DNA from: Bacillota bacterium
GTDB lineage: Bacteria; Bacillota; Sulfobacillia; Sulfobacillales; Sulfobacillaceae
Reading direction: 5' to 3'
DNA length: 32,000 nt
NCBI GenBank assembly: GCA_021820965.1
Contig: JAKACZ010000003.1
Coordinates: 9,297-41,296 of the forward strand
Shown: positions 5,895 to 26,822 of the stretch, one piece after another
Layout of the letters: every line of letters begins with the position of its first letter
Numbering within the stretch: position 1 is the stretch's first letter
Notes under the pieces: generated by a model
What the model saw: the letters and a program-made list of their open reading frames with translations, nothing else
Told to the model about the DNA's origin: nothing
Database searches by the model: none
Translations under genes and position numbers: made by a program

Positions 5895-5910
5895 TGTGAT
5901 ATCAATCACA
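5895..5910. promoter_or_regulatory. Crp/Fnr-type box TGTGATATCAATCACA (box 1)
   Basis: TGTGA-N6-TCACA read directly, embedded in the larger imperfect palindrome 5881-5919. It lies about 20 nt upstream of the uORF ribosome-binding site and about 115 nt upstream of ctaB. Confidence 0.5.
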
Positions 5911-5930: not shown

Positions 5931-6029
5931 ATGAGCGGGATCTACGGGCCCTTCTCACAAATGCCGCGGCACTGGGCCACAGCCGATGAGGTCAACGTGA
6001 TGCGGCGCCGAAAGCCGAGGTTGCCATGA
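5931..6029 (+). CDS. Small upstream ORF (32 aa) translationally coupled to ctaB
   Basis: ATG at 5931 preceded by AGAGGT with 6-nt spacing. Product: MSGIYGPFSQMPRHWATADEVNVMRRRKPRLP*. Its TGA (6027-6029) overlaps the ctaB ATG (6026) as ATGA. It falls below the track length cutoff and I recognise no homology. Confidence 0.3.
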   Translation: MSGIYGPFSQMPRHWATADEVNVMRRRKPRLP

Positions 6030-6925
6030 TAGGTGTTCACGGTGTTCACGGGTTGTCACGCAAGACGCTTCGTGCGCGCACAATTGTCTATTGGAACTTT
6101 ACCAAGCCGCGCATCTGGGCGGTTTTTGCGTTGGAAGGGTTGGCCGGCAGCATGCTGGCCAAGAGCGCTTCCGAGATTTTTCCCTGGCTCCCGGTGGTGA
6201 CCGCAGTGCTGGCGATTGCTCTAGCCGCGGCGGGGGCGGAGGCGCTGACCAACGTGCTGGATCGCAACATGGACGCAGTCATGCGTCGCACGCATACCCG
6301 ACCCTTGCCGCGCGGAACCATCACTCCAAGATCTGCTGTTGTGTTTGGCTTCGTGTGCGTGGGAGCCAGCCTGAGTCTGGGCGCTGTTTTGGGCGCGATT
6401 CCCTTGCTGTTCTTGGTCATCGGCCTGATCGACAACGTGATTATTTACAGTGCCCTGGCAAAGCGTACAACTCCCTGGAGCATCATGCTGGGTGCGGGCG
6501 CAGGCGCTATCCCGGTATGGGTCGGGTTCGCCGTGGTGCGACTGCCGATCAGCCTCAGCGGTTGGTTGCTCGGCGTGGTTGTTCTGTGCTGGATTCCGGT
6601 GCATATCTGGAGTCTAGCCTGGGCCTGCCGTGAGGATTATGCCCGGGCGGACGTGCCTATGGCACCGGTGGTGTGGTCGCCTAAGACGTTTCAACGGGCC
6701 TGGTATGCGGCCTTGGTGTTGATGCTGGGAGCAACCATGACCTTCGCCGCCGCGGCCTTAGGCCAAGTTGCCGGCCTGATCGCCGATGGTGCCGCGGCGG
6801 TGGTCGCCTTGCTGGGGGGGCAATGGGCCGTTTGGCCGACGACTAAGCATGCCCGGCTCGTATTTCAGACGGTCAATGCTTACTTGGCGGGTCTATTGCT
6901 ATTGGTGATTGTGATCCGATTGTAG
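6026..6925 (+). CDS. ctaB: Protoheme IX farnesyltransferase (heme O synthase), UbiA superfamily
   Basis: YWNFTKPRIW (the Y..LTKPRI motif), first Asp-rich motif NVLDRNMDAVMRRTHTRPLP, second motif EDYARADVPMAPVV, and about 8-9 TM helices. A GAGGT ribosome-binding site lies 5 nt upstream. Confidence 0.8.
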   Translation: MIGVHGVHGLSRKTLRARTIVYWNFTKPRIWAVFALEGLAGSMLAKSASEIFPWLPVVTAVLAIALAAAGAEALTNVLDRNMDAVMRRTHTRPLPRGTITPRSAVVFGFVCVGASLSLGAVLGAIPLLFLVIGLIDNVIIYSALAKRTTPWSIMLGAGAGAIPVWVGFAVVRLPISLSGWLLGVVVLCWIPVHIWSLAWACREDYARADVPMAPVVWSPKTFQRAWYAALVLMLGATMTFAAAALGQVAGLIADGAAAVVALLGGQWAVWPTTKHARLVFQTVNAYLAGLLLLVIVIRL

Positions 6926-6971
6926 ACGGAGGTGAATCGGGAAGGTGAATCGGGAGAAGGAGGAGAAAGCG

Positions 6972-8426
6972 ATGACGTCAGAGCTCTTGGTCCCTGAATC
7001 TGATGCCGGATGGAGCCTGGCCGTGCGCGGGCTGTTGGCCTGGATCGTGGTGGTTGCGTTGATAGGATTCTTTGCGGCCCCGTTTCTGACCCCGGGGCAA
7101 GCAGGCGACTTTTCGTCAGCCCTTGTCGATTTTTATCATGCGATTATGATTCCGGTAGCGGCCTTGTTTCTCATTTTATGCACGTTCGTGTTTCGCGTTC
7201 CGGCTTGGGTGCGTCGATGGGTGGTACAGGCGGGAGTGGTGGGCGCCGGGCTCGATGCGGTGGGATCCTTGGTGCGGGCGTATGGCGACGTGTATCACTC
7301 CGCAGGGTTTGGCGCAGGCGCGTGGATTCAATTCCCCGGCACGCTGATCATGGTCAGCGTAGCTCTGGTGTTTTTGGTTGGATTGGCTCTGACTGCGGTC
7401 AGAACACCCAAGCACTCAGCCGAATCTTCGCCTCTGATGGCGTGGGCGTTGTTTATTTCAGGCGTCTCCGCGGTGAGTGCCGTCGCCTTGGGCGGTATTT
7501 TGGCGGCCTCGGAGGTTGGGCTGTCGTGGGCGGGTTGGGCCCATGCTTTGCATGAAAACACGGGTGGCTTTTTGGGCAATGTGGTGACATCCCACTCCCA
7601 CGACATGCTGCCCGCATTTATGGCCGGCATTGTGCTTCTAGCAGCGCAGGCGTTTGGATACACCCATCTGCAAGGTCTGCGCCGTCGGGTAGCGCAGTGG
7701 GGCATCGCGATCTTGTTGATCGGGGTAGTCTTAATGACCCTCGCCTACGTGCTGTCCTCCCTCGGAACCTATAATATTCCCGCTCTGTGGGTTTCTGGGC
7801 CGCAGGGCGTCAATGGCATTGCCGAGGATGACTTTCTGACGGGGTTGGTCGGATGGGGAAGCTTGATCCTAATGGTCAGCCTGTGGTCGGAACTTCGCGA
7901 TCGGGCCCGGGTCGCGGCGGCAACCGTACGCAGCCGGATTAATCCGGTGCGGCTGGCGGTGTTTTTGACCTGGATTTGCGCCATGGTGGCCATGATTGTC
8001 TATGGTTACTACATTGAATTGCACGAGGTGGTGTTCGGCGGGGGTGCTTTGCCGGCTCCGGGAGCCATCAATGACCAGATTTTCACGCGAGCGCATCTCT
8101 TGTATGTGTTCCTTGCGCTTCCGGTTCTCGCGGTCTTTCTCCTGGCGGCCGAACTGACGGCGGATCCCGCCCGCAGGCGGTTGACCGGATCGATGGCGGG
8201 GGTCGGCATCGCGGGAATGTTGGTAAGTCTAGTGGGATTGGGCTGGTGGACGTTTGCGACACCGGGACACGCGGTGAGTTGGGCTCTGGCCAGCGGCGGG
8301 CATGATGTTTATGTGCTCGGCCAAGCCCTGATGTTGCTTGCGGCAGTGATGCAATTGTTTATCGGTAGCCGAGCGGTTCCGCCGGCCCCATTGCGGGCAG
8401 AGTCGGCGCCCGCCTCCCCGCATTAG
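6972..8426 (+). CDS. Polytopic (about 12-14 TM) His-rich membrane protein of unknown family
   Basis: Long ORF with a consistent hydrophobic periodicity. I prefer the ATG at 6972 (ribosome-binding site GAAGGAGGAG) over the track GTG at 6945. Histidines sit in or near helices: FYHAIMIP, WAHALHENTGG, TSHSHDMLPAF, YTHLQG, IELHEV, TRAHLLYV. No family signature was recognised. Confidence 0.7.
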   Translation: MTSELLVPESDAGWSLAVRGLLAWIVVVALIGFFAAPFLTPGQAGDFSSALVDFYHAIMIPVAALFLILCTFVFRVPAWVRRWVVQAGVVGAGLDAVGSLVRAYGDVYHSAGFGAGAWIQFPGTLIMVSVALVFLVGLALTAVRTPKHSAESSPLMAWALFISGVSAVSAVALGGILAASEVGLSWAGWAHALHENTGGFLGNVVTSHSHDMLPAFMAGIVLLAAQAFGYTHLQGLRRRVAQWGIAILLIGVVLMTLAYVLSSLGTYNIPALWVSGPQGVNGIAEDDFLTGLVGWGSLILMVSLWSELRDRARVAAATVRSRINPVRLAVFLTWICAMVAMIVYGYYIELHEVVFGGGALPAPGAINDQIFTRAHLLYVFLALPVLAVFLLAAELTADPARRRLTGSMAGVGIAGMLVSLVGLGWWTFATPGHAVSWALASGGHDVYVLGQALMLLAAVMQLFIGSRAVPPAPLRAESAPASPH

Positions 8427-8771: not shown

Positions 8772-8787
8772 TGTGACGATGGTCACA
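8772..8787. promoter_or_regulatory. Crp/Fnr-type box TGTGACGATGGTCACA (box 2)
   Basis: TGTGA-N6-TCACA read directly, about 90-105 nt upstream of the Fe-S subunit start. It shares the flanks TTGTGA...TCACAATC with box 1. Confidence 0.5.
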
Positions 8788-8878: not shown

Positions 8879-9952
8879 GTGAAACCAGAACAGGGCCCCA
8901 TGTCGCGACGACGCGTCATCCGGCAATTGGCCCTCACCGCTATCAGCTTATCCGCAGCCGGAACATTGCTGCGCAGCCGCATACGGGTTCAAAGTGTACG
9001 TGCCATCGCGGCGCGGCGATGGCGCCGCTGGGCGGGTGAAGCGGCGCTTCAGCGGGACTACTACCGTACCAAACCCCGGTGGGCCAGTTGGACCGTTCCG
9101 GCCCTGAATGTGGCCGATGGGTGGTCGGAACCTCAGGCGTGGATGCCCACCATCGAAAACTCACATCATGTCTCATATATCCATGATAATTTCCAACGGC
9201 TGTTGCCCGTGACCAAGCTGCCTCATCACTGGGTCATGGTGATTGACCTTCGTAAGTGCATTGGCTGCCAGGCCTGCGTGGTGGCCTGCAAGAGTGAGAA
9301 TAACGTGCCGGTGGGAGTGTACCGGACCTGGGTACAGGTTGTCGAGACCGGGAGCATGGAGCCGAGCCTGACCGGTCCGGTCGTCACTGCTGAGGGACAG
9401 TTTGAACCGAACGTGAAACGGTACAGTTTGCCGCGACTGTGCAATCACTGTGACGCGCCGCCGTGCGTGGAGGTGTGTCCTGTGCAGGCCACGTTCAAAC
9501 GGGAGGATGGGTTGGTTCTCATCGATTATCCGAAATGTTTGGGATGCGGATACTGCATTAATGCCTGTCCCTATGATGCGCGTTTCTTCAATCCGATCCA
9601 ACAAACCGCCGACAAATGTACCTTTTGCGTACAGCGGCTGGATCGGGGGCTGTTGCCGGCGTGCGTCACCTCTTGTGTGGGCAGGGCCCGCATTTTCGGA
9701 GATCTCAACGATCCTCACAGTGCCGTATCTCGGTTAATCGCGCAATACCCCACCGTGCATTTAAAGAGCACCATGGGGACCAAACCGCAAGTCTTTTACA
9801 TCGATATGGATGGTGTGCTCGCGGAAGACGGTGCCGGCACGTTGAATACCATCTATCCGTATGCCGTCGGCACCAATACGTACGAGTACGACGATTTGAC
9901 GGGGCGGGTACTGCTTGAGACGCCGACAGGCGGAGAAAGGAGGACGACCTGA
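8879..9952 (+). CDS. Tat-signal 4x[4Fe-4S] ferredoxin-type electron-transfer subunit of a molybdoenzyme (TtrB/PsrB/NrfC-like)
   Basis: Twin-arginine motif MSRRRVIRQLALTAISLSAAG. Four Cys groups: CIGCQACVVAC, CNHCDAPPCVEVCP, CLGCGYCINACP, CTFCVQR...CVTSC. The start is ambiguous. GTG 8879 has GGGAGGGG 9 nt upstream; ATG 8900 and the track start 8819 are also possible. Confidence 0.9.
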   Translation: MKPEQGPMSRRRVIRQLALTAISLSAAGTLLRSRIRVQSVRAIAARRWRRWAGEAALQRDYYRTKPRWASWTVPALNVADGWSEPQAWMPTIENSHHVSYIHDNFQRLLPVTKLPHHWVMVIDLRKCIGCQACVVACKSENNVPVGVYRTWVQVVETGSMEPSLTGPVVTAEGQFEPNVKRYSLPRLCNHCDAPPCVEVCPVQATFKREDGLVLIDYPKCLGCGYCINACPYDARFFNPIQQTADKCTFCVQRLDRGLLPACVTSCVGRARIFGDLNDPHSAVSRLIAQYPTVHLKSTMGTKPQVFYIDMDGVLAEDGAGTLNTIYPYAVGTNTYEYDDLTGRVLLETPTGGERRTT

Positions 9953-11160
9953 TGCCACATGGGGCGTTAATTCAGTCGGGACTTGAAAACGTGTACTGGG
10001 GTCTCATGATTGTGACCTATCCCTACATCTCCGGCTTGGTGGCCGGATCGTTTGTGGTCTCATCGTTGAGTCATGTGTTTCACCAAAAGGTGTTCGACCA
10101 ATTGGCCCCTCTGGCGGTGTTGATCAGTTTTGCGCTACTCTTGGCCGCTCCGCTCACCGTGCTGGGTGATGCGCGCCAGCCCACCAATTTTCTGGAACTG
10201 CTGAGTCGGGGCCATTGGCCGTATTCCCCCATTGCATTCTTCATTTTGATTTGGTTGGCCTACATTGTGCTGATGTTGTGTGAACTCTACTTTGCCTTCC
10301 GCGCCGAAAACGTGCGGCGCGCCGCCCTCGGCGGTCCCCGCCAGCGGCTGTACCGGATCTTGGCGCTGGGCAATCGCGATCTAAGGCCCGAGGCGGCCTT
10401 GCGCGATAAACGGATCCTCTTGGTGCTTTCTAGCCTGGGCATCCTCATGGCATTTCTCTTCCATGGATACATCGGGTTCATCTTTGGCTCGACCAAAGCC
10501 CGGCCTCTCTGGGCGACCCCGCTGATGCCGGTGCTCTTCATCGTCTCTGCCATGGTATCCGGAATTGCCCTGATGTGGATCGCCTATGTGCTCACCATGC
10601 GGTACTATCGCCGACCGGTGCAAAGAGCTGTCGCCGATGGTCTGTTGCGCTACCTGGTTCTGTTCGTGCTCTTAGACCTCTATATGGATGCGGTCGACTT
10701 TTTGACCAGTGCCGTTCCCGCCTATACTCAAGGACCGACTGCTGAGGGGTTTCAGCGCATATTGCTGCATGGGCCCGATACCGGGGTCTATCTAGGGTTG
10801 CAACTGGGCGTCGGCCTGTTCGTGCCGTTATTGGTGTGGGTAATTCCCCGGTTGCGCAAATCCCTCATCGGGGGGGCCGTGATGACCGCGGCTGTTCTTA
10901 TCGGAGTGTACGCCATGCGCTGGGATGTGGTGATTGCCGGGCAGGTTCAGTCCAAGATTTCGCAAAACCTGGTCGCCGTCAAGATTCCCTGGTTTGGCTT
11001 TGATTCCATTCAGACCGTGGTGGGGGTGTTCGCGGTGGCCTTTGTGGTGTTTACGGGATTAGCGTGGCTGTTTCCTTGGAAATCATGGGAAACGCCAGCC
11101 GAATGGCAAGGAGTGGCGAACTCGCAACGGGAGTCGCTCCAAGGAGGCGAACGGGCATGA
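9952..11160 (+). CDS. NrfD/PsrC/TtrC-family integral membrane quinol-interacting subunit
   Basis: 402 aa with about 8-10 TM helices. The N-terminus WGLMIVTYPYISGLVAGSF is typical of NrfD-family proteins. The ATG overlaps the upstream TGA (TGATG at 9950-9954) and an AAGGAGG ribosome-binding site is present. Confidence 0.85.
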   Translation: MPHGALIQSGLENVYWGLMIVTYPYISGLVAGSFVVSSLSHVFHQKVFDQLAPLAVLISFALLLAAPLTVLGDARQPTNFLELLSRGHWPYSPIAFFILIWLAYIVLMLCELYFAFRAENVRRAALGGPRQRLYRILALGNRDLRPEAALRDKRILLVLSSLGILMAFLFHGYIGFIFGSTKARPLWATPLMPVLFIVSAMVSGIALMWIAYVLTMRYYRRPVQRAVADGLLRYLVLFVLLDLYMDAVDFLTSAVPAYTQGPTAEGFQRILLHGPDTGVYLGLQLGVGLFVPLLVWVIPRLRKSLIGGAVMTAAVLIGVYAMRWDVVIAGQVQSKISQNLVAVKIPWFGFDSIQTVVGVFAVAFVVFTGLAWLFPWKSWETPAEWQGVANSQRESLQGGERA

Positions 11161-14100
11161 GTAAGGACTCGGGAAAATCGTCCCTGGCTCGCGTGTCGCG
11201 GCGGGACTTTTTGAAAGGCGCCAGTTTGGCGGGCGGCGGCCTGGTGGCGGGCGGATGGGGGTTGTCGCCATGGATCGGCGATGTGTTTCATCGCCGGGGC
11301 ACATACGTCTATCCCAATCGTCCGCCGACATGGAATGGAGTAGAGACAAAATACAGCGTCTGCAAACAGTGTGGTAGCGACTGCGGGCTCGAGGCCCATG
11401 TGTTCCGCGGAGTGCTGCAAAAGCTCGACGGGAATCCATATCATCCCGCTTCGACCGAACCGCATGCCCCTTATGCCACGGCCCTCAGCACGGCTGTGGT
11501 GTGGCCAGCGCCGCATTCGCTGTGCCCCCGTGGCCAGGCCGGACGCCAGACAGTATATGACCCTTACCGGGTGACCGTGCCGCTCAAGCGCGTCGGGCCG
11601 CGCGGCTCGGACCAGTGGGAAGTGATTTCATGGCCTCAGTTGATTAGTGAGGTAGTGGACGGGGGCAGGCTATTTCACAAAGTGCCCGGGGAGTCCAGCC
11701 GGGCGGTGGCGGGCTTTGCCAATCTCTATAACGGGGGGCGGGGTCAGCGTAGTCCCATTGACTCGCGCCATCCGGATCTGGGACCCAAGACCAATGGTTT
11801 AGTGATGTATGTGGGCGAGGCGGAAGCGGGCCAAGGTCAGTTTATCAGCCGGTTTGCCGGCTCCTTCGGCACGGTCAATGTTCAAGGCAACGGGCAGATC
11901 TGCAACAATAATGTGGGAGTTTCCTTCAACCTCTCGACCTCCGGGCAAGCGGGGGAACTGCGTCCGGACGTTCTCAATGCCGAATACGTCATCTGGTTTG
12001 GGCTAAATGCCCTGGAAGCGAATTTTCCCATGCAGGCCTTGGGGCGAAAAGTCGTCGAAGCGGTGAGTGACGGACGGCTGAAGTATCACATGGTCGATGT
12101 GCGTGCTGGCAACGGCCTGATTCACGCCAGCAATCAGACCTGGGTGCGTCCCGGTGGAGACGGCGCCCTGGCCATGGGAATGGTTCGGTGGATTTTGGAA
12201 AATCAGCGGTACAATAGCCCCTATCTCAGTATTCCGCATGCCAAGGCGGCGAACGCGCACGGCGAACCGAACTATACCAATGCGGCCTGGCTGGTGGTGA
12301 GCGATGTGGCACATCCCCACAACCGGGCGTTTTTGACAGCTGCCGAAGCCGGGCTTGTGGCTCAGTCGGATCCCCGCGCCTCCGATCCGGTGGTGTGGGA
12401 CGCTACCAGTGGGAAACCGAAAATTGCTACCGAAGTCTCGAGGGCCAAGCTGTGGCCGAAAAAACCTCTGGATATGAGCCCGGTAAGCGTGGCCGGGGTG
12501 GCCACCAAAACCTCTTTTCAGGTCCTTGCGGAGGAGGCGATGCGCTACAGCTTGCCGCAATACGCGTCGATGGCGGGTACCAACCAACAGACAATTGTGC
12601 ACCTGGCCCGGGAGGTGACCAGTCATGGCCGGCGAGCTGTGGTGGACTTTTTCCGGGGGGCTGTGATGCACACCAATGGGGTGTATACGGGCCGGGCGCT
12701 GATGACGTTAAACCTACTCATCGGGAATCTCGACTGGGTGGGCGGATACATGGTGGGCGGCGGTGGAGCGGACATCCTGGGGAGTAGCCAGGGCCAGCCC
12801 TATTCGCTCGACAATTGGCCCAACATGGGTGCTGGACCCCAGGGAGTTACCATATCCCGCAATGGGACGGCCTACGAATCGACGTCATTTTACCAAGCAC
12901 GGTTGTCCCATAAAGAGTCGCCTTATCCCGCAAAACGTCCCTGGTTCCCGTTTAGCGGAGGGCTGTGGGAGGAGATGTTTGCCGGCATCTATCAGAGCTA
13001 TCCTTATCCCTGTGCCATTCTGGTGCAGCATATTGCCAATCCCGCGTGGAGTGCCCCGGGGATCGGGGGCGCCGACGATGACAACCTGCCGTGGATGCGC
13101 CTGATCAAGGACACCGCGAAGGTCCCGTTATTTATTGCGATTGACACCCAGATTTCGGAGAGTTCCCGCTATGCCGACTACATCGTGCCCGATACAACCT
13201 ATCTGGAAGGCTGGGGGTTCCCGGGCCTGCGCCCCGTGGTTCCCACCAAAACTACCGGCGTTCGGCATCCCGTCATCGAGCCTCTCACCCAAAAGACGCC
13301 CGCGGGTGAACCGATGAGCATGGAACAGTTCTTCATCGATGTGGCCAAGGCACTTCACTTACCCGGATTCGGCCCGAACGCGTTTATCGAGGGGGGCGCA
13401 CTGAATGCCCGGGAGGACTACTACTTGAAAATGGTCGCCAATGTGGCATGGGACTCGTCTTATCAAAAGCGTTCGGGCGCCAAGTTGGTTTCCCTGGGGC
13501 CAGTTCCCGACGCTTCAAGCGCCGAGGAGGAGATGGCGGTTTCGGACCTTCGTACCCGTTATCCGGCGGCGCTGAGTCAGGCAGCTTGGGCCAAAGTCGC
13601 CTATGTGCTGGCGCGCGGGGGGCGCTTTGAAGACTACCCCGTCGGATACCTGCCCAACGCAGAAAGTACGAGTCGGCTGCGTGCGTTGATCACCCGTCAG
13701 GTGCTGCGTACGGGAACGCAGCGCTGGGCCAAGGCGCCGAATCAGATCAGTCCCGAGGATCTTCTGGGAATCTATGGGCATATGCTTCCGACCTGGAGCG
13801 GTGGTTCACCGTTCCAAAACCCGTCGTGGGTGACCCACCAATTGGGGACCGGGGCGCCGTTACAGATCTATAACCCCGATCAGGCCCTGGCCATCAATGC
13901 GTTGACTGGTACCCATTTCTTGGGTACGGGAAGCTACCAGCCGCCGCAGACGATGCGGGGCCAATTGCTGACGCATCTTGACCCGTCATCCGAATTTCCC
14001 TTTGTGCTCACCACACGGAAAGAAACGGTGCAAAGCAAGGCATGGACCATTGCCGATCCCTGGCTCTTGGAGATGCTACCGGAGGCGTTTATTGACATGA

Positions 14101-14453
14101 ACCCGATCGATGCCCGTCGCCTCGGGATTCACGAAGGGGATGAGGTTCGCGTATCCTCCCGTACCTATCCCCGCGGCCTGACCGGGCGGGTTCGCTTGTT
14201 GCCCGGGGTTCGCCCCGGCGTGATCTCCTTTCCCCATGGATATGGCCACTGGCATTACGGATCCAGCAAGTGGGTCATCGACGGACGATCTTACGTCGGA
14301 GACTCGGCCCGAAACGCCCCCGTGCGGTTGAACGCCGTGATGCGGCTCGACCCTAGTTTGGCGGCCCCGGACGGGTGGACCATCGCACTGGAAGATCCGA
14401 TTGGCGGCGGGTGCGCCTATTTTGAGACGGCTGTTCGGATTCAGAAAGTCTAG
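11157..14453 (+). CDS. Molybdopterin (bis-PGD) oxidoreductase catalytic subunit, Tat-exported, TtrA-like size (1098 aa)
   Basis: ATG at 11157 overlaps the nrfD-like stop as ATGA, with an AGGAGG ribosome-binding site. Tat motif SRRDFLKGASLAGGGL. N-terminal FS0 motif CKQCGSDC...(46 aa)...LCPRG. Also GNPYHP, DPYRVTVPLKRVGPRG, and a C-terminal Molydop-binding-like barrel (...VRVSSRTY...GVISFPHGYGHW). The track start at 11064 is rejected because it overlaps nrfD by 97 nt. Confidence 0.9.
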   Translation: MSKDSGKSSLARVSRRDFLKGASLAGGGLVAGGWGLSPWIGDVFHRRGTYVYPNRPPTWNGVETKYSVCKQCGSDCGLEAHVFRGVLQKLDGNPYHPASTEPHAPYATALSTAVVWPAPHSLCPRGQAGRQTVYDPYRVTVPLKRVGPRGSDQWEVISWPQLISEVVDGGRLFHKVPGESSRAVAGFANLYNGGRGQRSPIDSRHPDLGPKTNGLVMYVGEAEAGQGQFISRFAGSFGTVNVQGNGQICNNNVGVSFNLSTSGQAGELRPDVLNAEYVIWFGLNALEANFPMQALGRKVVEAVSDGRLKYHMVDVRAGNGLIHASNQTWVRPGGDGALAMGMVRWILENQRYNSPYLSIPHAKAANAHGEPNYTNAAWLVVSDVAHPHNRAFLTAAEAGLVAQSDPRASDPVVWDATSGKPKIATEVSRAKLWPKKPLDMSPVSVAGVATKTSFQVLAEEAMRYSLPQYASMAGTNQQTIVHLAREVTSHGRRAVVDFFRGAVMHTNGVYTGRALMTLNLLIGNLDWVGGYMVGGGGADILGSSQGQPYSLDNWPNMGAGPQGVTISRNGTAYESTSFYQARLSHKESPYPAKRPWFPFSGGLWEEMFAGIYQSYPYPCAILVQHIANPAWSAPGIGGADDDNLPWMRLIKDTAKVPLFIAIDTQISESSRYADYIVPDTTYLEGWGFPGLRPVVPTKTTGVRHPVIEPLTQKTPAGEPMSMEQFFIDVAKALHLPGFGPNAFIEGGALNAREDYYLKMVANVAWDSSYQKRSGAKLVSLGPVPDASSAEEEMAVSDLRTRYPAALSQAAWAKVAYVLARGGRFEDYPVGYLPNAESTSRLRALITRQVLRTGTQRWAKAPNQISPEDLLGIYGHMLPTWSGGSPFQNPSWVTHQLGTGAPLQIYNPDQALAINALTGTHFLGTGSYQPPQTMRGQLLTHLDPSSEFPFVLTTRKETVQSKAWTIADPWLLEMLPEAFIDMNPIDARRLGIHEGDEVRVSSRTYPRGLTGRVRLLPGVRPGVISFPHGYGHWHYGSSKWVIDGRSYVGDSARNAPVRLNAVMRLDPSLAAPDGWTIALEDPIGGGCAYFETAVRIQKV

Positions 14454-14457
14454 CTAG

Positions 14458-15105
14458 GTGACGGAATCAGGGAACGGGGGCAAATCCATGAAAACCGAGA
14501 CAATGGTCTGGTCGGCGGACGAGATGGCGGCGGGATATGATTATCTAGCGTCCGCGTTTCTTTACGGACCGGTGCGCCTGGACCCCACCGTGCAAGCCAC
14601 CTGGGGAGAACGCGTGGCTAAAAGAAGCGCCGACTTGGGCGACTTATGGACTACGGTGACCGGAGCATTGGCCCACGAGGTCGACGAGCAGCGAGCGATG
14701 GTGGATTTTCACGAATGCTTGGAGGTTCCCCTGCCGGGACGCTACGTAGCGCCGTACGCCTCCGTGTACCTGGACAAACCCGTCACGCTGTGGGGCCCCA
14801 CGACTTGGCGAGTGCTGCAGTGGTACGAGCAAGGAGAGCTGGAGTGGCATCGGTTCCGCCATGTGGCGGCGCCGGACCATATGGGGGTCGAATGGGCGTT
14901 TTTGGCGGAACTGAGCGCCGACTTGAGGCCGGAAGCCAATGCATTGCGCAGAACATTTATCGCGGAGCACGTGTTGCGCTGGGTCCCCGCGTTTCTCACC
15001 CGCCTCGAGAGCGCGGCTCGCAGCCCCTATTATCCGGCTCTGGCGCATTGGGGGATCGCATGGATCGAGGCAACAGGTACCGCGGAACAGGGGGGAGCGG
15101 AATAG
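14458..15105 (+). CDS. TorD/DmsD/NarJ-family redox-enzyme maturation chaperone
   Basis: Pattern YDYLASAFLYGP...PLPGRYVAPYASVYL...WGP...YEQGELEW......APDHMGVEWAFLAEL...FIAEHVLRWVPAF. The gene lies directly after the catalytic subunit. The start may instead be ATG 14488. Confidence 0.8.
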   Translation: MTESGNGGKSMKTETMVWSADEMAAGYDYLASAFLYGPVRLDPTVQATWGERVAKRSADLGDLWTTVTGALAHEVDEQRAMVDFHECLEVPLPGRYVAPYASVYLDKPVTLWGPTTWRVLQWYEQGELEWHRFRHVAAPDHMGVEWAFLAELSADLRPEANALRRTFIAEHVLRWVPAFLTRLESAARSPYYPALAHWGIAWIEATGTAEQGGAE

Positions 15106-15179
15106 GCTTTTCTCCGGAAGGTGGGAATAGTGCCGCTGTCCGCTGCACGATGATCGGAACATCGGGATGAAAGGGGGCG

Positions 15180-15485
15180 ATGACCGTGGTCGGTGATTTG
15201 TTGAGTCCCGTGCATTTGGTGGTGTTGGGCATCATCGGGCTGTTGGTGTTTGGTCCCAAACGACTGCCCGAGTTGGGTTCCGGGTTGGGACAGGCGCTTC
15301 GGGGATTTAAGGAGGCGGTCATTGGGCAAAAACTGTCTGAACGTTCGGCCGACCCTGAGGATGCCCACTCAGAGGCGCTTAAGAAAGCCTCGCCGGGCAC
15401 CATTTCGGTGACGGTTGAGGGGTCGGACACCTCGGGGATTGAGGCGGATCCGCGTCTCTGGAAGAAAGCAGGCAGGGGGCAATGA
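15180..15485 (+). CDS. tatA: Twin-arginine translocase TatA/E-family protein
   Basis: N-terminal TM helix plus hinge: LVVLGIIGLLVFGPKRLPELGSGLGQALRGFKEA. AAGGGGG ribosome-binding site. Confidence 0.9.
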   Translation: MTVVGDLLSPVHLVVLGIIGLLVFGPKRLPELGSGLGQALRGFKEAVIGQKLSERSADPEDAHSEALKKASPGTISVTVEGSDTSGIEADPRLWKKAGRGQ

Positions 15486-16210
15486 CCGCGAAGGAGGGAG
15501 GCGAGCCCCCGTTTCCAGTATCCCCGGCGCCGAAACGCACGATGAGTCGCCCTGACGCCGAGGATACCGTCGTGGTGGCGGTGCGAGCAGCCCGAGATGT
15601 GGATCGCGAAGGTTTACGCTGCGTGCTTGGCGCTATTGCGGGGATTCGCTGTGTTGAACCAGAGGAGCTGAGCGACGGCAAGGCTCCTCTGGTGACTGTG
15701 GTGGCAAGTCCCTCGCTGCGATGGGTTCAGGAAGAAGTGAGCCACTGGAGTACGCGGGGACCGATGGTGGCGATCACCGATGCAAGCCAGGGGTGGACGA
15801 CTACTTGCTTGATGGGTGCGGGAGCCCAAGTGGTGTTGGATTACAGCGACCCGGTGGCACGAATCGTAGCCACGGTCCAAGGCCTAGCGTGGCAGTCCCA
15901 CGTGGCGGTTCCAGCTATGGTCACCCGGTGGCGGGCGGCCAGTACGGAACGAAAGGCGTCGGAAACAAACCTTACCCCTATGGATCAGCGAATTTGGCAA
16001 GCCGTGGCTCAAGGTCGAAGCAATGTGGAAATTGCCGAGCGGCTAGGTATCAAACTCACGACCGTTCGCGACGGAATCACCCGAATCTATAAGCAACTTG
16101 GGGTCCGCCATCGGGCGGCGGCCGCAGCCTTATGGTGGCGGCAACACGAGGCGGAAGAGAGCGACCGCGGGCCACCCGGGCGGGGCGGCGGCGGAGGCGG
16201 CGAGCGGTGA
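15482..16210 (+). CDS. LuxR/GerE-type HTH regulator with degenerate (pseudo-)receiver domain
   Basis: The C-terminus LTPMDQRIWQAVAQGRSNVEIAERLGIKLTTVRDGITRIYKQLGV is a GerE HTH. The N-terminal ~120 aa has a receiver-like alternation of beta and alpha segments but non-acidic residues at the expected Asp positions (VVVAVRAARD..., ...LVTVVASPS). Its ATG overlaps the tatA stop (ATGA). Confidence 0.75.
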   Translation: MTAKEGGEPPFPVSPAPKRTMSRPDAEDTVVVAVRAARDVDREGLRCVLGAIAGIRCVEPEELSDGKAPLVTVVASPSLRWVQEEVSHWSTRGPMVAITDASQGWTTTCLMGAGAQVVLDYSDPVARIVATVQGLAWQSHVAVPAMVTRWRAASTERKASETNLTPMDQRIWQAVAQGRSNVEIAERLGIKLTTVRDGITRIYKQLGVRHRAAAAALWWRQHEAEESDRGPPGRGGGGGGER

Positions 16211-16419: not shown

Positions 16420-17127
16420 ATGAGCCACGATGTGGAATATTCGCGGGCAGGAGCACCTTTTGCGGAGATTGCCTCACGTTATTGGGCCATCAGCAACCGT
16501 TTGGCAATGGGGCAGTTCGGAAACTGGCACCGGGCTGCTTTGAACGCGATGGCTCTCGATTCCTCGGTGAGCATCCTTGACGTCGGGTGCGGCACCGGGC
16601 AGTTCCTTCGTTCGGTCGCGCAGAGCACCGGGCGAGGAGACCTTCTTACCGGACTAGACCCGGAACCAGCCATGTTAGCCGAGGCCCGACGCTTGGCCTC
16701 TTCAGACGCACAGAGAAGATGCATTCGGTGGGTGCGGGGATTTGGTGAGTGCTTACCTTTTCCCGATGCGACATTCGATCGGGTGACCGCCCAATTTTCC
16801 TTGCGCAATATGAATGACTGGCACCGAGGCCTGTCGGAGATGATTCGTGTTCTCCGACCTTCGGGGCGCCTGATCGTACTGGAAATGGTACGGCCGGAGA
16901 CGCTAAAGGGATGGTTGGGGGTTCACTATCTAGAGGCCGTGACCCGGCTGCCGGGAATCACGCCTTTCCACGTTTTGCCCAAAACCGTACCGGGATTCGA
17001 ATCCGCTCGGAACGTGATGACCGTGTTAAAAGCGTCGTCGGTGAACGCGTGCACGTGTCGTAAATGGGTGGGAGGGCTGGTAGTGCTGATCGTCGCAGGG
17101 GCGGCTATCAGTGCCAATGAAGTGTAG
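16420..17127 (+). CDS. Class I SAM-dependent methyltransferase, UbiE/MenG-like
   Basis: SAM motif ILDVGCGTGQF, then LPFPDATFDRVTAQFSLRNMNDW..GLSEMIRVLRPSGRLIVLE. This pattern matches demethylmenaquinone/ubiquinone C-methyltransferases. GAGGGGG ribosome-binding site. Confidence 0.75.
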   Translation: MSHDVEYSRAGAPFAEIASRYWAISNRLAMGQFGNWHRAALNAMALDSSVSILDVGCGTGQFLRSVAQSTGRGDLLTGLDPEPAMLAEARRLASSDAQRRCIRWVRGFGECLPFPDATFDRVTAQFSLRNMNDWHRGLSEMIRVLRPSGRLIVLEMVRPETLKGWLGVHYLEAVTRLPGITPFHVLPKTVPGFESARNVMTVLKASSVNACTCRKWVGGLVVLIVAGAAISANEV

Positions 17128-18010: not shown

Positions 18011-18442
18011 TCAGAACTGCACTTGGTGTGGCTTGTCATGCTTTACCCGCAGACGGCTAAAGTGTTTATGGTTCCAGGTGACAACATAAGGATGAGAACT
18101 CGAGCGAGCCTTCGCGGCAATATATGCATCAATGTAGTCCACGTGCTGTTGGTCGTAGTCTCTGAGCGCTTCCAAGACTAACGACTTTTCTTCCATATCC
18201 ATGCCTTTCGCATTGATAATGTTGATCAAGGCTTGTGCGATGTCTGGAGGATTGTGGCCATACGGGCTTTCGAGCACCCAACAACATTCGGCAATCACGA
18301 TAGAAGGAATTTTCAACACCACTTGGCCTTGGTCCACCATTTGCACCAACTGTTTAACCTCTTCAACCATCTTGGGTGAGTCACCGGTAATAATTCGGAG
18401 CAAGACATTGGTATCGGCTCAAACGGTGAGCGGGCTATTCAC
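18011..18442 (-). pseudogene. vapC: PIN-domain (VapC-type) toxin gene with in-frame TGA at codon 8
   Basis: Reading from the GTG at 18442, which overlaps the antitoxin stop, gives M N S P L T V * A D T N V L L R I I T G D... TGA is at 18419-18421. The track ORF restarts at TTG 18403, downstream of the conserved DTN Asp. The rest is PIN-like (...IAECCWVLES...VDYIDAYIAAKA...VVTWNHKHF). Confidence 0.7.
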
Positions 18443-18704
18443 GGATATCTTCCGGATACCGCAGCTGAGATTTGGTTGCATAGACGTACTTTCGGTATTC
18501 ACTGGGGTCTTGGTAATTTCGAGTGGCTGCTAAGATGCCTACAAGCGACGCCAGCCTCTTTCTTTTGACCACTTGCAATGTTACGGTATCGTCGTCCGCG
18601 ACCGTAAATATAATTTGGTCTCCTTGCTCGGCCCCCAACTTGTGCCGAATTTCCGCGGGAATCACGGTTTGTCCCTTACGGGACAATGTACTTAAGGCTC
18701 TCAT
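18435..18704 (-). CDS. vapB: AbrB/MazE/SpoVT-family antitoxin (VapB-like)
   Basis: ATG at 18704 with an AAGGAGG ribosome-binding site 6 nt upstream. MRALSTLSRKGQTVIPAEIRHKLGAEQGDQIIFTV..DDTVTLQ is the swapped-hairpin SpoVT/AbrB motif. The track start at 18860 is rejected because it has no ribosome-binding site and the extension is AT-rich. Confidence 0.8.
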   Translation of the reverse strand: MRALSTLSRKGQTVIPAEIRHKLGAEQGDQIIFTVADDDTVTLQVVKRKRLASLVGILAATRNYQDPSEYRKYVYATKSQLRYPEDIRE

Positions 18705-18964
18705 GGGTGCCTCCTTAGGATCATCGTTTTGCTTCATTATAGGTCTTACCTCGCCTTCAGTAAAATCTGTGTTTTTAGTCTTACTCTTTAAGATATCCAT
18801 TATCGGCGAAAAATAGACTTCCTCAGCGTAGTTTGCAATAATGACGCAGTTTGCTGGCATCTATATTCTGAGAAAATTTTGGGCCCGTCACACCCTGGCG
18901 CACAGGACCATTGCGGCATGGTTTGCCAGAACGAATTAGTCGATAAAGGTGGGGATGAGCCGGG

Positions 18965-19864
18965 CTATGCTCCGTACCGATGCGCTGATGCTTGAATACA
19001 GGCCACCAATAATCTGGAGGCAATGCCGGTCTTCAAGTGCTGGCGATTAAAACGATAGGCGAACCCTTCCAGATACAATTGGCGCCGGGCGCGTCCGCGC
19101 CCGTGATACGTGCCGTCAACGAACGTTTTCACCAGACTGATGACCGTGTTGACCCAATGGAAGACCACCGGGGCCTCCGGATCGGTATTGAGCGTCACAT
19201 CATGGTTCGCCCCATGTTGCTGGGCTGCGGTGGCATAACACTGCCGCGCTGTCGCTCCGCCACACGCCCTGGTTCTCCACCCGCCGCCGCAAGACGTCTA
19301 ACACCGTGTCCGTTTGTAGGTTGTTGGGCTCGGCTTGGAGAAACACGTAACGGGGATGGTCCTGAGCATTCAAACTCACCCCGATCACCACCGAGTCTTG
19401 ATCCGTGCCGCGGCCTCGTTTGCCGGTTCCGTGACTGACACCGCCAAAATAGGCGTCATCCAGTTCGACGAGACCGCCGAGTTGATACCGGGCATTGCGG
19501 TCCTGCATGGCTTGTTGAATCTTGTGGTGCATGAGCCAGGCGGCATCGTAGCGGAGGTCAAGCTCGCGGCTTAACGCGAGGGCGGATTTCCCACCTTTAT
19601 CGACAGCGATTAGGAAGATTGCGAGAAACCACACTCGCAGGGGCAATTTCGTCCGATGAAAGATGGTCCCGGCCGTGACGGACGACTGATGGTGGCCGGC
19701 GGTGCATTCATACCATGGGGCGGTCCGGTTGGACCGCTGAATCGTCCAGTACGTGGTCCCCTGGCGTTTGGGGCACACGAAACCATCCGGCCATCGTTGT
19801 TTGAAGAGGTAATCATGGCAGGCTTTGTCCGTTGCAAACCGATCTCCGTATTATTTCGGTTCAT
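18965..19864 (-). pseudogene. IS1595-family (ISXO2-like) transposase pseudogene, at least 2 frameshifts
   Basis: Pieces: ...DRFATDKACHDYLFKQRWPDGFVCPKRQGTTYW...YECTAGHHQSSVTAGTIFHRTKLPLRVWFLAIFLIAVDKGGKSALALSRELDLRYDAAWLMHHKIQQAM...VELDDAYFGG...GKRGRGT, then in another frame ...WVNTVISLVKTFVDGTYHGRGRARRQLYLEGFAYRFNRQHL. The zinc-ribbon CPxCG has degraded to CPKRQG. Confidence 0.75.
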
Positions 19865-20024: not shown

Positions 20025-21272
20025 TCACCGACGGAATCCGAACGCGGGTCGGCACAAGAGACCCACCCAACTACCCATCAATGCGAAGAGAAACCATTCC
20101 CACCCGTGCAGGCTAAAAGACGCAATGCCGGAGAAGTACGCCCCAATGTTGCAGCCGAAGGCAATCCGCGCACCGTAGCCCATTAGGGCACCTCCCCCAA
20201 TCAGGGCGACCCACATCCGGCCGGGGATTCGTGGCAATTTCCAATTGGAAAACCCTCCTGCCAGAGAGGCGGCTAAAAAGGCACCCAAGATGACACCAAT
20301 GTCGAGGACGGTGGTCGCATCATGTAGGATGCCATGCCTCAAGGCCATTGCGTTGGCTGGCACTTGCCAGTAGGTCCAATGGGCTACCGGGATCCCCAGT
20401 GCCTGAGCGATTTTCGCGCCCCAGAGGGCGAAGGCAAACGTGACACCCCATGGCTTGCCGGACAGCAGCAGAACGAGCCAGTTTCCCACCGCGAGCACCA
20501 GACCTCCTCCGATCCAAGACCACGGTCCTTTGAACAAAATGTGCGGATCGAACCGACCGGCATGATTCCGGTGGAGTGCAAGAGCGCTAAAGAGCGGCTC
20601 GACATGTCCGTATCGGCGCTGCTCCAACCTCCAGGCCAGCAAAAAGACGATGGCTAAGAGAAGTCCCTCGACCATGAACCCTCCTACCGCACCGAACGAC
20701 GCGACGAACGAGATGGGAGAAAAATGGGGAGTAGCCATCCACCAGGGAAAATTCACGCTGCCTGCGACCGAACCCACGACAAACCCCGCTATGGCCGCCA
20801 CACCACGCAAGTCACCTCCACCTGTGTGATACAAGGTCCCGGAGGCGCACCCGTCGGCCAGTTGCATACCAATGCCAAAAAGAAACGAACCTACCGCGAC
20901 AGATATGCCGACAGGAAATACATATCCGCCTACGGTGTGACCGAATGCCTGTCCATGCGTCATCAACGGCAAGAACAACAGATTTGCCATCAAGAACATG
21001 ACCATTTGGGCTCGAATTCCGATCCCCCGTTGGTCTCGAAGAAAATTGCGAAAGGAAGAAGTAAACCCATAACGAGCGAAATATAACGCGGCGCCCAACA
21101 TGCCAGCCACTAAGAAAAGCCCGACTTGAGTAAGCGACTCGGTTTGCCAGAGGAGTAATGACCCTGCGAAAAATATAACACCCGAGACGACTACGAGACC
21201 TCGATTGGAGGGGGCCGTCTGCCCAACCCGGGCGGTCGGTTCGTCCAACGCAACGTGGGTAAAGTCAACCAT
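20025..21272 (-). CDS. YeeE/YedE-family sulfur-compound (thiosulfate-type) transporter
   Basis: Two sulfur-transport repeats with the conserved Cys motifs GMQLADGCASGTLY and ARIAFGCNIGAYFSG, and about 10-12 TM helices. I prefer the ATG at 21272 (ribosome-binding site GAGGGGGA) over 21290. Confidence 0.85.
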   Translation of the reverse strand: MVDFTHVALDEPTARVGQTAPSNRGLVVVSGVIFFAGSLLLWQTESLTQVGLFLVAGMLGAALYFARYGFTSSFRNFLRDQRGIGIRAQMVMFLMANLLFLPLMTHGQAFGHTVGGYVFPVGISVAVGSFLFGIGMQLADGCASGTLYHTGGGDLRGVAAIAGFVVGSVAGSVNFPWWMATPHFSPISFVASFGAVGGFMVEGLLLAIVFLLAWRLEQRRYGHVEPLFSALALHRNHAGRFDPHILFKGPWSWIGGGLVLAVGNWLVLLLSGKPWGVTFAFALWGAKIAQALGIPVAHWTYWQVPANAMALRHGILHDATTVLDIGVILGAFLAASLAGGFSNWKLPRIPGRMWVALIGGGALMGYGARIAFGCNIGAYFSGIASFSLHGWEWFLFALMGSWVGLLCRPAFGFRR

Positions 21273-21617
21273 GATTGTTCCCCCTCGCATGCTACCAACA
21301 TTATGAAGTAACTGCCTTACTCACGATCCTTCTATGTTCAATCCCCGTCATTTCAGGCACAGCATCCCCGGGTTGTTTTCTAGATTGGCATGGTATCAAG
21401 GGCCGGGTCTTTCGCCTAGCACAACAATACCCTATATAACCTATAGAATCAATAGGATATCTAACCATTTATTATAGCTGCTAGATGGGTTTTTTAAACT
21501 GTTGGTTCCGCCCCCAAAGGCAGGCCATCCTTTAGAGCGTCGTATGCCGACGCGGGTGGAGGGATAACGCAGGCGAAACAGACCGGTGGGAAAAATGCGG
21601 GCACTTGGATCGGGCAA

Positions 21618-25068: not shown

Positions 25069-26511
25069 ATATATACTCGGTGAAAAAGAAGTTGAAAAAG
25101 GGTACAACTGTTTGCGATTTAATGCGTGATGAGACCTTTGGTGGAGCATTCGCGACGGGAATGCCGACTGCCACCGTAGGGAATCATGCCGGAGGCATGG
25201 CGGCCCGAGAGGAGACGCTTGGCGGCGGGCACGCCCAGCCGCCCCGCCTACACCGGGGCGTTGAAGAGGACCGCTTCGTGGTGCCGCGCGTTCGCGCGGC
25301 CTAATTCCAACAGAGACGCTTGAGGGTTTGTTCCGGGTCTGCGTTCACCCGCTTCATGAACCCGGTGACTGCATCCACGATGGCGGAGACCGTCTTGAAG
25401 AAGACGTTGTAGATGACCGAGCGCTTTAACCATCCCCATAGCCCCTCAATCCGGTTCAGCTGCGGGCTGTAGGGCGGGAGGAAGAGCAGGGTGAGCGTCT
25501 CGCGATGCGCGTCGAGAAATGGTTGAATGAGCTTGGCATGGTGGATCCGCGCGTTATCCAAAATCATCACGATGCGCTCGCCTTGGTAGTGGTCGACGAC
25601 CTGCTTCAGAAATGTGAGAAACACGGCAGCGTCATAGTGATCGGCGTGATGCCACAGCACTTCCCCGGTGCCATAATCCAGCGTTCCTAATAATTTGGCG
25701 CCCCAATGTTTTCCATAGGTGGGGATTTGTTTTTGTTGACCCTTGGGAAACCACGTGCGGCCGATGGCCTGATAATCCCGAATCATGGACTCGTCTTCGA
25801 ACAGCAGCCGGTCAATTTCACCGCGCCGCAAGCGGCGCTTTTCCCGCCGGAACCAGCGGTTAAATTGGCGTTGCTTCACGGGGTCCGCCTTCGCCAGCGT
25901 ATAGGTCGGGCGCGTGCAACTGAAGTTCCAGCGATACAGCAGATTCCGGGCTCCGCGTTCGGAAAACTCGACCTGAAACGTCTTCGTGATATACCGCGCC
26001 ACCAGTGGCGCGGTCCAATTCATCTCGGCCGGAAAGCCGATCTCTTGGGGGACGTGATGCGTGATCACATCGATGGTCTGGCGCTCCTGGCCCGGGGTAA
26101 GGTGGCGCGGACGGCCGGGTGAATGGCGTAGGTTTAGGGCACCCAAGCCGCCCCGGCGATAGGCCTTCATGTAATTGGCAACGATCGTCACCGACCGTCC
26201 AATGATCTGGCTTACCTGCCGATACGGATAGCCTTGCAGGACCAGCAAGACCGTTTGGTACCGTTCGAACAACCGGCGGTTCCGGATGCTTTTCATCGTG
26301 GCTTGAATGAATAGCAGGTCTTGCGAATGGGAGTTATCGAGGGGAGATGATGCTCGAGGCTGGGGCGGATTCACGGGCGCGAGAACGGGTCTGCGCATGA
26401 TACACTCCTCCTACGTCAACAAAGGATGAGTGTACGATAGCGAATCCGACCGGCCACGTCCAGACAAAATCTTCCAAATCCGATTCAAAATCTTTTTCAC
26501 CGGGTATATAT
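25069..26511 (-). mobile_element. Complete IS630-family insertion sequence (~1.44 kb) with 28-bp imperfect terminal inverted repeats
   Basis: The left end ATATATACTCGGTGAAAAAGAAGTTGAA (25069-25096) compares with the reverse complement of the right end, ATATATACCCGGTGAAAAAGATTTTGAA (26511-26484), at 25/28 identities. Both ends lie in (TA)n tracts, consistent with IS630 TA target duplication. The exact tips are ambiguous within the TA runs. Confidence 0.8.
25301..26398 (-). CDS. IS630-family DDE transposase (intact, 365 aa)
   Basis: The N-terminus has HTH regions. The C-terminus is ...RIVMILDNARIHHAKLIQPFLDAHRETLTLLFLPPYSPQLNRIEGLWGWLKRSV (DDE/D motif). GGAGGAG ribosome-binding site. Confidence 0.9.
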   Translation of the reverse strand: MRRPVLAPVNPPQPRASSPLDNSHSQDLLFIQATMKSIRNRRLFERYQTVLLVLQGYPYRQVSQIIGRSVTIVANYMKAYRRGGLGALNLRHSPGRPRHLTPGQERQTIDVITHHVPQEIGFPAEMNWTAPLVARYITKTFQVEFSERGARNLLYRWNFSCTRPTYTLAKADPVKQRQFNRWFRREKRRLRRGEIDRLLFEDESMIRDYQAIGRTWFPKGQQKQIPTYGKHWGAKLLGTLDYGTGEVLWHHADHYDAAVFLTFLKQVVDHYQGERIVMILDNARIHHAKLIQPFLDAHRETLTLLFLPPYSPQLNRIEGLWGWLKRSVIYNVFFKTVSAIVDAVTGFMKRVNADPEQTLKRLCWN

Positions 26512-26822
26512 CTCCTATCGGTGTCGCCGGATATTACGGCGAGCCGATGGCTGGACTAACGAGACGAAGCCCATGAAAGGAGGACGTCGCCACGTCCTCC
26601 TGACCGCAGGGGCTTTTGTGGCGACAAATCTGGTGAACGACGGCTGCTCTAGATAGCCGTATGGTATCAGGTGATGAACAGGATCCGGCCTGATGGGCGG
26701 TGGAGATAGGCGATCCGGCCTATTGTTCTCATGGATGGCCAAGTTTGGCACCCGCAATCACTTTGAGTCACGGGTAATCAACCGTGACCGGGGCACTATA
26801 TCTGTCGGGGGGGTGGGAGATT

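Follow-up and report, generated by a model that had tools for sequence, protein, structure and literature searches.

A membrane protein family with a predicted heme-copper oxidase fold and no canonical CuB ligand set, encoded beside a heme O synthase paralog in bacteria and archaea

In subunit I of the heme-copper oxidases (HCOs), transmembrane helix (TM) 2 and TM6–TM10 form the heme and binuclear-center (catalytic) pores, CuB is held by one histidine on TM6 and two on TM7, and the position of H419 in Escherichia coli CyoB is that of the proximal ligand of the high-spin heme, which is the farnesylated one in bo3 and aa3 enzymes. Oxidase operons such as cyoABCDE often encode their own heme O synthase, and heme A synthase (CtaA) carries two histidine pairs and a catalytic glutamate. 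The superfamily is closely catalogued, with families defined by an almost invariant six-histidine site, and a 2024 survey reported that all recognized HCO families keep the active-site histidines, a single His-to-Asp change in gNOR being the first exception (PMC11214002). Heme O synthase genes have the gene for heme A synthase as their most frequent conserved partner, with synteny of 75–92% for several types (PMC12808453). Here we describe a locus that resembles these systems in some respects and departs from them in others. It lies in a 32,000-nucleotide stretch of the genome of a Bacillota bacterium of the Sulfobacillaceae (contig JAKACZ010000003.1, positions 9,297–41,296; hereafter the window), and consists of a ctaB-like gene (6026–6925, plus strand, 299 amino acids (aa)) followed by the gene for a 484-aa membrane protein, here called X (6972–8426, plus strand), whose set of conserved residues differs from that of the HCOs.

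The spacer between the ctaB stop codon and the ATG of X at 6972 is exactly 46 nt and contains AAGGAGGAG just before the ATG; the longest open reading frame (ORF) of X starts from GTG at 6945 and would encode 493 aa. A preliminary description of this DNA had reported the ctaB-type gene with its motifs, the 46-nt spacing, and a downstream protein of unrecognized family with about 12–14 TM helices and no ctaA, ctaCDEF or qox genes nearby, all of which our analysis bears out, the predicted number of helices being 12. Among the 30 ORFs scanned against Pfam and NCBIfam in the 32-kb window, none was a COX1/2/3, COX15, qox, cox or cta gene beyond the ctaB-like gene itself, and tblastn of the window with seven oxidase subunit I sequences returned noise only (E > 0.3). 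A ytxC-thrS pair at the 3′ end of the window, together with the nearest homologs, indicates a genome of Sulfobacillus-like Bacillota type.

We lean modestly toward reading X as a hemoprotein without copper, built on the scaffold of oxidase subunit I and fed with prenylated heme by its own synthase, and as the representative of an undescribed family.

Predicted fold and sequence relationships of protein X

We modeled X with AlphaFold2 from a 37-sequence alignment (predicted local distance difference test (pLDDT) 84.3, predicted template-modeling score (pTM) 0.88) and obtained 12 TM helices and a short beta hairpin at the outer face. When the model was compared with the PDB using Foldseek, the best 34 matches were all catalytic subunits of HCOs or nitric oxide reductases (NORs), including ba3, bo3, aa3, cbb3, cNOR and qNOR, with probabilities of 0.99–1.00, full-length alignments and template-modeling scores (TM-scores) of 0.42–0.59, after which the values dropped sharply to probabilities of at most 0.18 and a TM-score of ~0.14. 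A second AlphaFold model, of an archaeal homolog (P0036) that is ~30% identical to X (pLDDT 84.2, pTM 0.86), matched mainly qNOR, cbb3, aa3, bo3 and cNOR, with weaker E-values than those of X and with qNOR and cbb3 as the best matches. The predicted cytoplasmic loops of X contain 16 lysines and arginines and the outside loops none, so that by the positive-inside rule both termini lie inside, as in subunit I. In these models X thus carries the 12-helix scaffold of HCO subunit I, with histidines on TM2, TM6 and TM10 in the outer third of the membrane. The preliminary description had compared histidine spacings and found X unlike oxidase subunit I; the six-histidine pattern is indeed absent, but the relation to oxidases was set aside too soon, as the predicted fold is that of an oxidase.

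Sequence methods gave a different picture. Neither single-sequence (phmmer) nor family-profile (hmmsearch) searches with X produced any match in Pfam, NCBIfam or the PDB sequences, and assignment by hhalign against an A-family oxidase profile failed as well. Homolog searching first yielded 37 clusters, all without a name; when 1.84 billion representatives were searched exhaustively with a profile, 127 members were recovered (96 with E < 1e-10), and a third search with a wide alignment as query added essentially none. Every named member of the family is annotated as 'hypothetical protein', and no description of an X-like family was found in the literature searched. The X family has therefore escaped sequence-profile annotation and becomes visible only through structure prediction. 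Some distant members carry extra domains (P0163, 680 aa; P0112, 697 aa; P0052, 616 aa): P0112 has a Ser/Thr-rich, extracellular-looking N-terminal extension, while the marginal member P0163 is extended by one more TM helix at the C terminus and by a beta-rich domain. For the latter domain we considered a cupredoxin and rejected it, as the plastocyanin/azurin-like match was faint and below threshold (E 0.066) and the copper-ligand motif incomplete.

The lack of sequence similarity to HCOs would also be expected if X were a non-heme transporter, channel or scaffold with oxidase-like helices, or had been mis-modeled, and the UbiA-type enzyme encoded beside it prenylated a non-heme substrate such as a quinone-type ring, X then having a part in export or assembly. 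Carboxylate clusters at the outer face of X, described below, are typical of cation-binding sites and fit such a role. The fold match is, however, specific to HCOs and NORs, with transporter folds at probabilities below 0.2, and neither profile nor structure searches assigned X to a transporter family. Conserved histidines on TM2, TM6 and TM10 at heme depth, together with a D-x2-F-x3-H segment, are likewise hard to explain without heme, and we regard a non-heme X as very unlikely.

Conserved residues and candidate cofactor sites

We compared residue conservation across the X family with the canonical ligand set, checked in E. coli CyoB (H106, H284, H333, H334, H419 and H421). Residues kept down to ~20% identity include H56 on TM2, H208-S-H210 on TM6, Y259 on TM7, and D368 and H375 at the entry of TM10, along with P270, N281 and G282 in the hairpin and, at the outer face, D286-D287 at the start of TM8 and E349 and E352 at the end of TM9. 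Every conserved polar residue is found no more than 13 positions from the outer end of its helix (TM2 or TM6–TM10). The recurring histidines listed in the preliminary description are all present in X, and the homologs do conserve histidines, though only these four; H191, H194 and H351 are not conserved. Co-variation of histidine losses across the family was uninformative, and no conserved inward proton-channel residues were found in it.

The TM2 histidine is present in 66 of 70 family members. TM6 has two histidines as H-x-H, instead of the H-x3-Y of oxidases, and TM7 (residues 235–263) has none in X or in 63 of the 70 members, with an HH pair in 0/70, so that the three-histidine CuB/FeB set is absent. 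TM10 has a single histidine, H375; the position equivalent to H421 (residue 377) is never histidine in the family, being L, D, V, M or I, and because it is Leu377 in X the bis-histidine low-spin heme site is incomplete. The superfamily of subunit I proteins (Pfam COX1, PF00115) takes in the A-, B- and C-type O2 reductases, cNOR, qNOR and the newer eNOR, sNOR, gNOR and nNOR. Since the predicted fold and topology agree with subunit I, but detectable homology, the CuB set with its TM7 HH pair, the second TM10 histidine and the partner subunits (subunits II/III or cytochrome c) are all missing, we describe X as an oxidase-fold, oxidase-like protein that is not a member of any recognized HCO family.

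The closest local resemblance to oxidases is at the entry of TM10, where X has NDQIFTRAHLLYVF and cytochrome c oxidase-type enzymes have HDTYFVVAHFHYVL, with D, F, A, H, Y and V identical in register. X thereby shares D-x2-F-x2-A-H-x2-Y-V with aa3-type enzymes, and D-x2-(F/Y)-x3-H is found throughout the relatives of X. A collinear hhalign alternative pairs H375 of X with H419 of CyoB; this alignment is weak and not significant (probability 2%), and 7 of the 70 members have Gln at position 375. On the agreement between the motif register and the collinear alignment we tentatively take H375 to be the counterpart of H419, and, judged from sequence, the TM10 entry of X mirrors the oxidase segment in which the high-spin, farnesylated heme finds its proximal ligand. 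The earlier suggestion that X may bind farnesylated heme in an oxidase-like manner thus gains support from the predicted fold and from this segment; heme binding and a redox function are putative.

The best-scoring local hhalign alignment, equally weak, pairs H-S-H of TM6 in X with H-F-H of TM10 in CyoB, a shift by four helices, as the three-fold pseudo-symmetric fold would predict. Because residues i and i+2 face opposite sides of a helix, TM6 of X might bridge two cofactors, as TM10 does in oxidases, and it is plausible that two hemes are held by the four conserved histidines.

The favored reading can be set out as follows. The CtaB paralog would prenylate heme and pass the product, either heme O or a variant that differs in chain or substrate, to X. 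Binding would take place in the counterpart of the high-spin (o3/a3) heme pocket, where H375 of TM10 would serve as the proximal ligand. The distal side would be made up of H208-x-H210 on TM6, Y259 on TM7 and outer-face carboxylates instead of CuB. The carboxylate cluster of D286, D287, E349, E352 and D368, with N281, probably binds a cation, a non-heme metal or heme propionates, and a second heme is probably bound through H56 on TM2. X would then carry out redox chemistry near the outer face, without a conserved inward proton pathway, and in the Bacillota lineage it may be expressed under an Fnr-type low-oxygen regulator.

A narrower form of this reading, which we think quite unlikely, makes X a catalytic HCO-like reductase or oxidase of NO, O2 or another small molecule, or an Fe(II)-oxidizing site, in which a heme/non-heme-metal center of H208, H210, Y259 and the carboxylates replaces heme-CuB. 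Metal and ligand replacement has precedents, as the NOR branch has FeB with a His3Glu set in place of CuB and gNOR has its His-to-Asp change (PMC11214002). The best matches of the archaeal P0036 model, qNOR and cbb3, point the same way, as do the carriers of X, which are of acidophile-type lineages, several of them related to iron oxidizers. Set against this, two histidines at i and i+2 of a helix, on opposite faces, are ill placed to bind a single metal together, X has no conserved electron-input partner of the cupredoxin or cytochrome c kind, and no record among the matches is labeled as a cultured iron oxidizer or denitrifier.

A bolder version, speculative and in our judgment unlikely, would see the X family as an unseen branch or ancient offshoot of the HCO scaffold that is copper-free, uses a custom prenylated heme from its own synthase and has the H-x-H helix that bridges the cofactors moved from TM10 to TM6, to which TM10 is related by pseudo-symmetry. 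The redox reaction, at the outer membrane face of acidophilic bacteria and archaea, would serve respiration or detoxification. Candidate reactions would involve NO or another small oxidant at low oxygen, or Fe(II) oxidation; the Fe(II)-oxidizing enzyme of Gram-positive acidophiles is, to our knowledge, still unidentified. A family that combines this predicted scaffold with a different set of conserved residues and a private heme O synthase paralog would show the HCO fold reused for different chemistry. It is also a new candidate component of respiration in uncultured organisms of acid mines and hot springs, whose respiratory chains are poorly understood. As a two-gene unit, ctaB-X is open to expression and may reveal a new prenylated heme species.

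The linked ctaB paralog and the distribution of the gene pair

The ctaB-like protein contains the motifs VYWNFTKPRIW, NVLDRNMDAVMRRTHTRP and DYARADVPMAPVV, and matches Pfam UbiA (PF01040) at 1e-38. On the NCBIfam heme O synthase model TIGR01473 it scores 199.4 bits, just below the equivalog cutoff of 210.3, and on NF003349 190.5 bits against a cutoff of 246, while every other UbiA subfamily scores at most 51 bits, so that heme O synthase is the best family by a wide margin. The Asp-rich prenyl-diphosphate motifs and the heme O synthase signature residues are present. Like CtaB, CyoE and COX10, the protein keeps K-P, D79 and D83, M-x-R-T-x2-R-P, Y141, K146-R147, W189, H193 and D-Y-x5-P-M-x-P-V-V; it differs from them in belonging to a clade of its own that accompanies X in both domains.

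Scores of ctaB homologs were at least 186 bits for the X-linked type and then dropped to at most 140 bits for generic heme O synthases, and in a neighbor-joining tree (no bootstrap) the bacterial and archaeal X-linked sequences grouped in a single clade that excluded E. coli CyoE and the 26 generic enzymes included. Both groups share D79, D83, M86, R88, T89, R92, Y141, K146, R147, W189, H193, Y205, P211 and M212. With this catalytic Asp/Arg/Lys core intact, the linked clade has about 10 specific substitutions at sites that are near-invariant (74–100%) in canonical enzymes, those fixed in it being N75T (with N76 fixed), Y137N, T142S, W144L, Q151W, N152S, I155L and F194I. These substitutions suggest a dedicated paralog, perhaps with altered specificity for the prenyl donor or acceptor, rather than the stand-alone heme O synthase of ordinary kind that had been assumed at first.

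The same data bear on whether X is tied to heme at all. The score of the paralog, short of the trusted cutoff for heme O synthases, and its altered pocket speak for prenylation of a non-heme substrate, but 199 bits on the heme O synthase model, against at most 51 on models of quinone and other prenyltransferases, and the retention of the shared residues speak against it.

We assessed gene linkage by scanning 185,579 species-representative genomes, which gave 63 X loci (39 bacterial and 24 archaeal); the scan used a narrower X alignment and is biased toward closer relatives, with the Caldisphaera/Acidilobus branch falling outside the linkage counts. A ctaB-like gene adjoined X in 49/63 loci, spanning Bacillota, Actinomycetota, Dormibacterota, Chloroflexota and Thermoplasmatota, and the linkage noted in the window therefore extends well beyond it. 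In 38 of 39 bacterial loci the gene directly preceded X in the same orientation, the sole exception being an extra X copy in a metagenome-assembled genome (MAG) that holds three linked copies, and in Thermoplasmata archaea it was adjacent in 11/24 loci, ten of them divergently transcribed. Three metagenome contigs have the same ctaB-X arrangement. No other neighbor recurred to a comparable extent: when 921 flanking ORFs were clustered, no further family was present at more than 7 loci, among the 140 immediate neighbors, tallied by Pfam family, none exceeded 5, and COX2, COX3, COX15, cytochrome c and molybdoenzyme families were absent from the 25 most frequent Pfam families of those 140 genes. 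As the closest relatives of X (69–73% identity; L013–L015) also lack the molybdoenzyme cluster that follows it in the window, the conserved unit is the ctaB-X pair.

The bacterial carriers are MAGs of Sulfobacillus and other Bacillota, Acidimicrobiaceae and other Actinomycetota, Solirubrobacteraceae, Dormibacteria and Chloroflexia, and the archaeal carriers are Thermoplasmata including Ferroplasmaceae and 'I-plasma', to which the wider family adds Caldisphaera, Acidilobus and other Thermoproteota. Judging by organism and sample names, we take these to be uncultured and overwhelmingly acidophile-type lineages (mine drainage, acidic hot springs and peat). The X family is shared among bacterial and archaeal lineages of this type through horizontal transfer or ancient descent. 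One Actinomycetes MAG, DBS2-4.bin131, has four X copies (L032, L043, L044 and L064), three with the ctaB paralog and one (L064) without, which could reflect amplification within the genome or strain mixing in the bin. On two Actinomycetota-type contigs the pair lies beside arsenic/metal-resistance-type genes (L002, 2.0–8.2 kb; L003, 12.1–14.7 kb), namely an ArsR-type helix-turn-helix protein, an MIP channel, an SBF/ACR3-type carrier, a pyridine-nucleotide disulfide oxidoreductase, ArsD and ArsA. An arsenic-resistance context was discarded as a general explanation, since it occurred only in these two loci and did not recur in the 63-locus survey.

A membrane protein always found beside ctaB would also fit a heme-modifying enzyme, given that heme A synthase is the commonest partner of heme O synthase genes (PMC12808453). 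X would then be an analog of heme A synthase for which the prenylated heme from the CtaB paralog is the substrate, modified for other proteins while bound beside a cofactor heme or a metal site of the conserved His, Glu and Asp residues. Like CtaA/COX15 (PF02628), X is polytopic, and its four conserved histidines and carboxylates resemble the CtaA inventory; it has no conserved redox partner subunit, as a biosynthetic enzyme would show. The likeness does not extend to sequence or architecture, as X has no PF02628 match and its 12-TM, oxidase-like fold, against the 8-TM two-bundle fold of CtaA, is that of a heme-using enzyme and not of any known heme-modifying one. Its conserved residues are at the outer face, far from a cytoplasmic reductant for a monooxygenase-type reaction, and an enzyme serving the ordinary oxidases of the cell would not call for a ctaB paralog of its own whose pocket is altered. 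We consider a heme-modifying role unlikely on balance.

Several results weigh against the favored reading of X as a heme protein on the oxidase scaffold. Because no sequence method connects X with HCOs, the relationship rests on predicted structures, derived from one 37-sequence alignment, with modest TM-scores and root-mean-square deviations of 7–11 Å; Pfam COX1 (PF00115) matched neither X nor ten distant members, a PDB profile search with the family was empty, and hhalign of the 70-sequence X alignment against seven A-family oxidases gave probabilities of 0.06% (global) and 2–3% (local). With its partner ligand, H421 in HCOs, replaced by Leu377, the role of H56 is ambiguous. A subclade of six members (P0063, P0079, P0086, P0087, P0122 and P0126) has Gln at position 375 and nevertheless retains the TM2 histidine, the TM6 H-S-H and the acidic residues, a pattern that no simple bis-histidine model explains. 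The product of the CtaB paralog may not be heme O, as its TIGR01473 score is below the cutoff and its pocket altered, and in 13 of the 24 archaeal loci the flank lacks a ctaB gene. No electron-delivering partner subunit recurs beside X in the 63 loci, and none of the record titles of X matches names a cultured strain.

Regulatory boxes and neighboring genes

Only two exact TGTGA-N6-TCACA sites occur in the 32 kb, which confirms the twin Crp/Fnr boxes reported earlier. Box 1 (TGTGATATCAATCACA, 5895–5910) lies 116 nt 5′ of the ATG of the ctaB-like gene and box 2 (TGTGACGATGGTCACA, 8772–8787) lies 113 nt 5′ of the corrected start, at 8900, of a TtrB-like gene; allowing one mismatch gave 3 sites in the window against 0.66 expected. 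In two other loci from Bacillota (L014 and L015) a single exact site occurs within the 12–13 kb of each, ~90–120 nt upstream of the ctaB-like gene, and no exact site was found in L013 or the non-Bacillota loci. The motif is the Fnr consensus of Bacillus/Paenibacillus (bioRxiv 10.1101/2020.01.03.894683), which suggests that ctaB-X is induced at low oxygen, with an Fnr-type protein as the putative regulator. The near-equal spacing of the twin boxes to the start codons makes common control of both operons plausible in this genome, as had been proposed; because L014 and L015 have the box without the Ttr-like cluster, however, the box belongs to the ctaB-X module itself in this Bacillota clade. Such control bears on two of the alternatives above: low-oxygen expression alongside an anaerobic-respiration molybdoenzyme would favor X as a catalytic reductase or oxidase, and it suits an O2-requiring oxygenase, as a heme modifier might be, poorly.

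The molybdoenzyme operon (8900–16210, plus strand) is complete, with subunit order B-C-A, and encodes a TtrB-like iron-sulfur subunit with a twin-arginine translocation (Tat) signal (8900–9952), an NrfD-type membrane subunit (9952–11160), a Tat-exported TtrA-like catalytic subunit (11157–14453), a TorD-like chaperone (14458–15105), TatA (15180–15485) and a LuxR-type regulator (15482–16210), all on the plus strand. The ORF-based starts of the B and A subunits were over-extended, and the Tat motifs place them at 8900 and 11157. Against the TtrA model the catalytic subunit reaches 581 bits, well short of the cutoff of 1750, so that its substrate may be tetrathionate, polysulfide, an arsenate-type or another compound. 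A gene for a YeeE/YedE-type sulfur transport protein (20025–21290, minus strand; Pfam Sulf_transp, 1e-62), 4 kb from the operon, fits a sulfur compound. The preliminary description had tied X to NrfD and molybdopterin genes; as a general feature this association does not stand, the Ttr-like operon being absent beside X in all 63 other loci and in L001–L005.

A UbiE/COQ5-type methyltransferase gene (16420–17127) lies just past the Ttr/LuxR block, 8 kb downstream of X. In L015 (11453–12898) a UbiE-type methyltransferase, fused to a Usp domain and 37.5% identical to the window homolog, directly follows X, which suggests that the Ttr-like operon is an insertion, beside the ctaB-X module, into an older ctaB-X-methyltransferase arrangement. 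These methyltransferases give a hint of quinone-like chemistry, as a non-heme X would imply, but they account for only 3 of the 140 flanking genes. A similar methyltransferase lies 6 kb from the ctaB-X pair in L002.

Farther downstream, mobile-element debris occurs at 18435–19778 and 25301–27095, including a MazE-like antitoxin, an IS1595-type transposase fragment, an intact DDE_3 transposase (25301–26398, minus strand) and a truncated Mn-catalase ORF (26784–27095). The G+C content is 48–53% around 18–19 kb and 21–25 kb, which suggests recently rearranged or acquired DNA downstream of the ctaB-X region.

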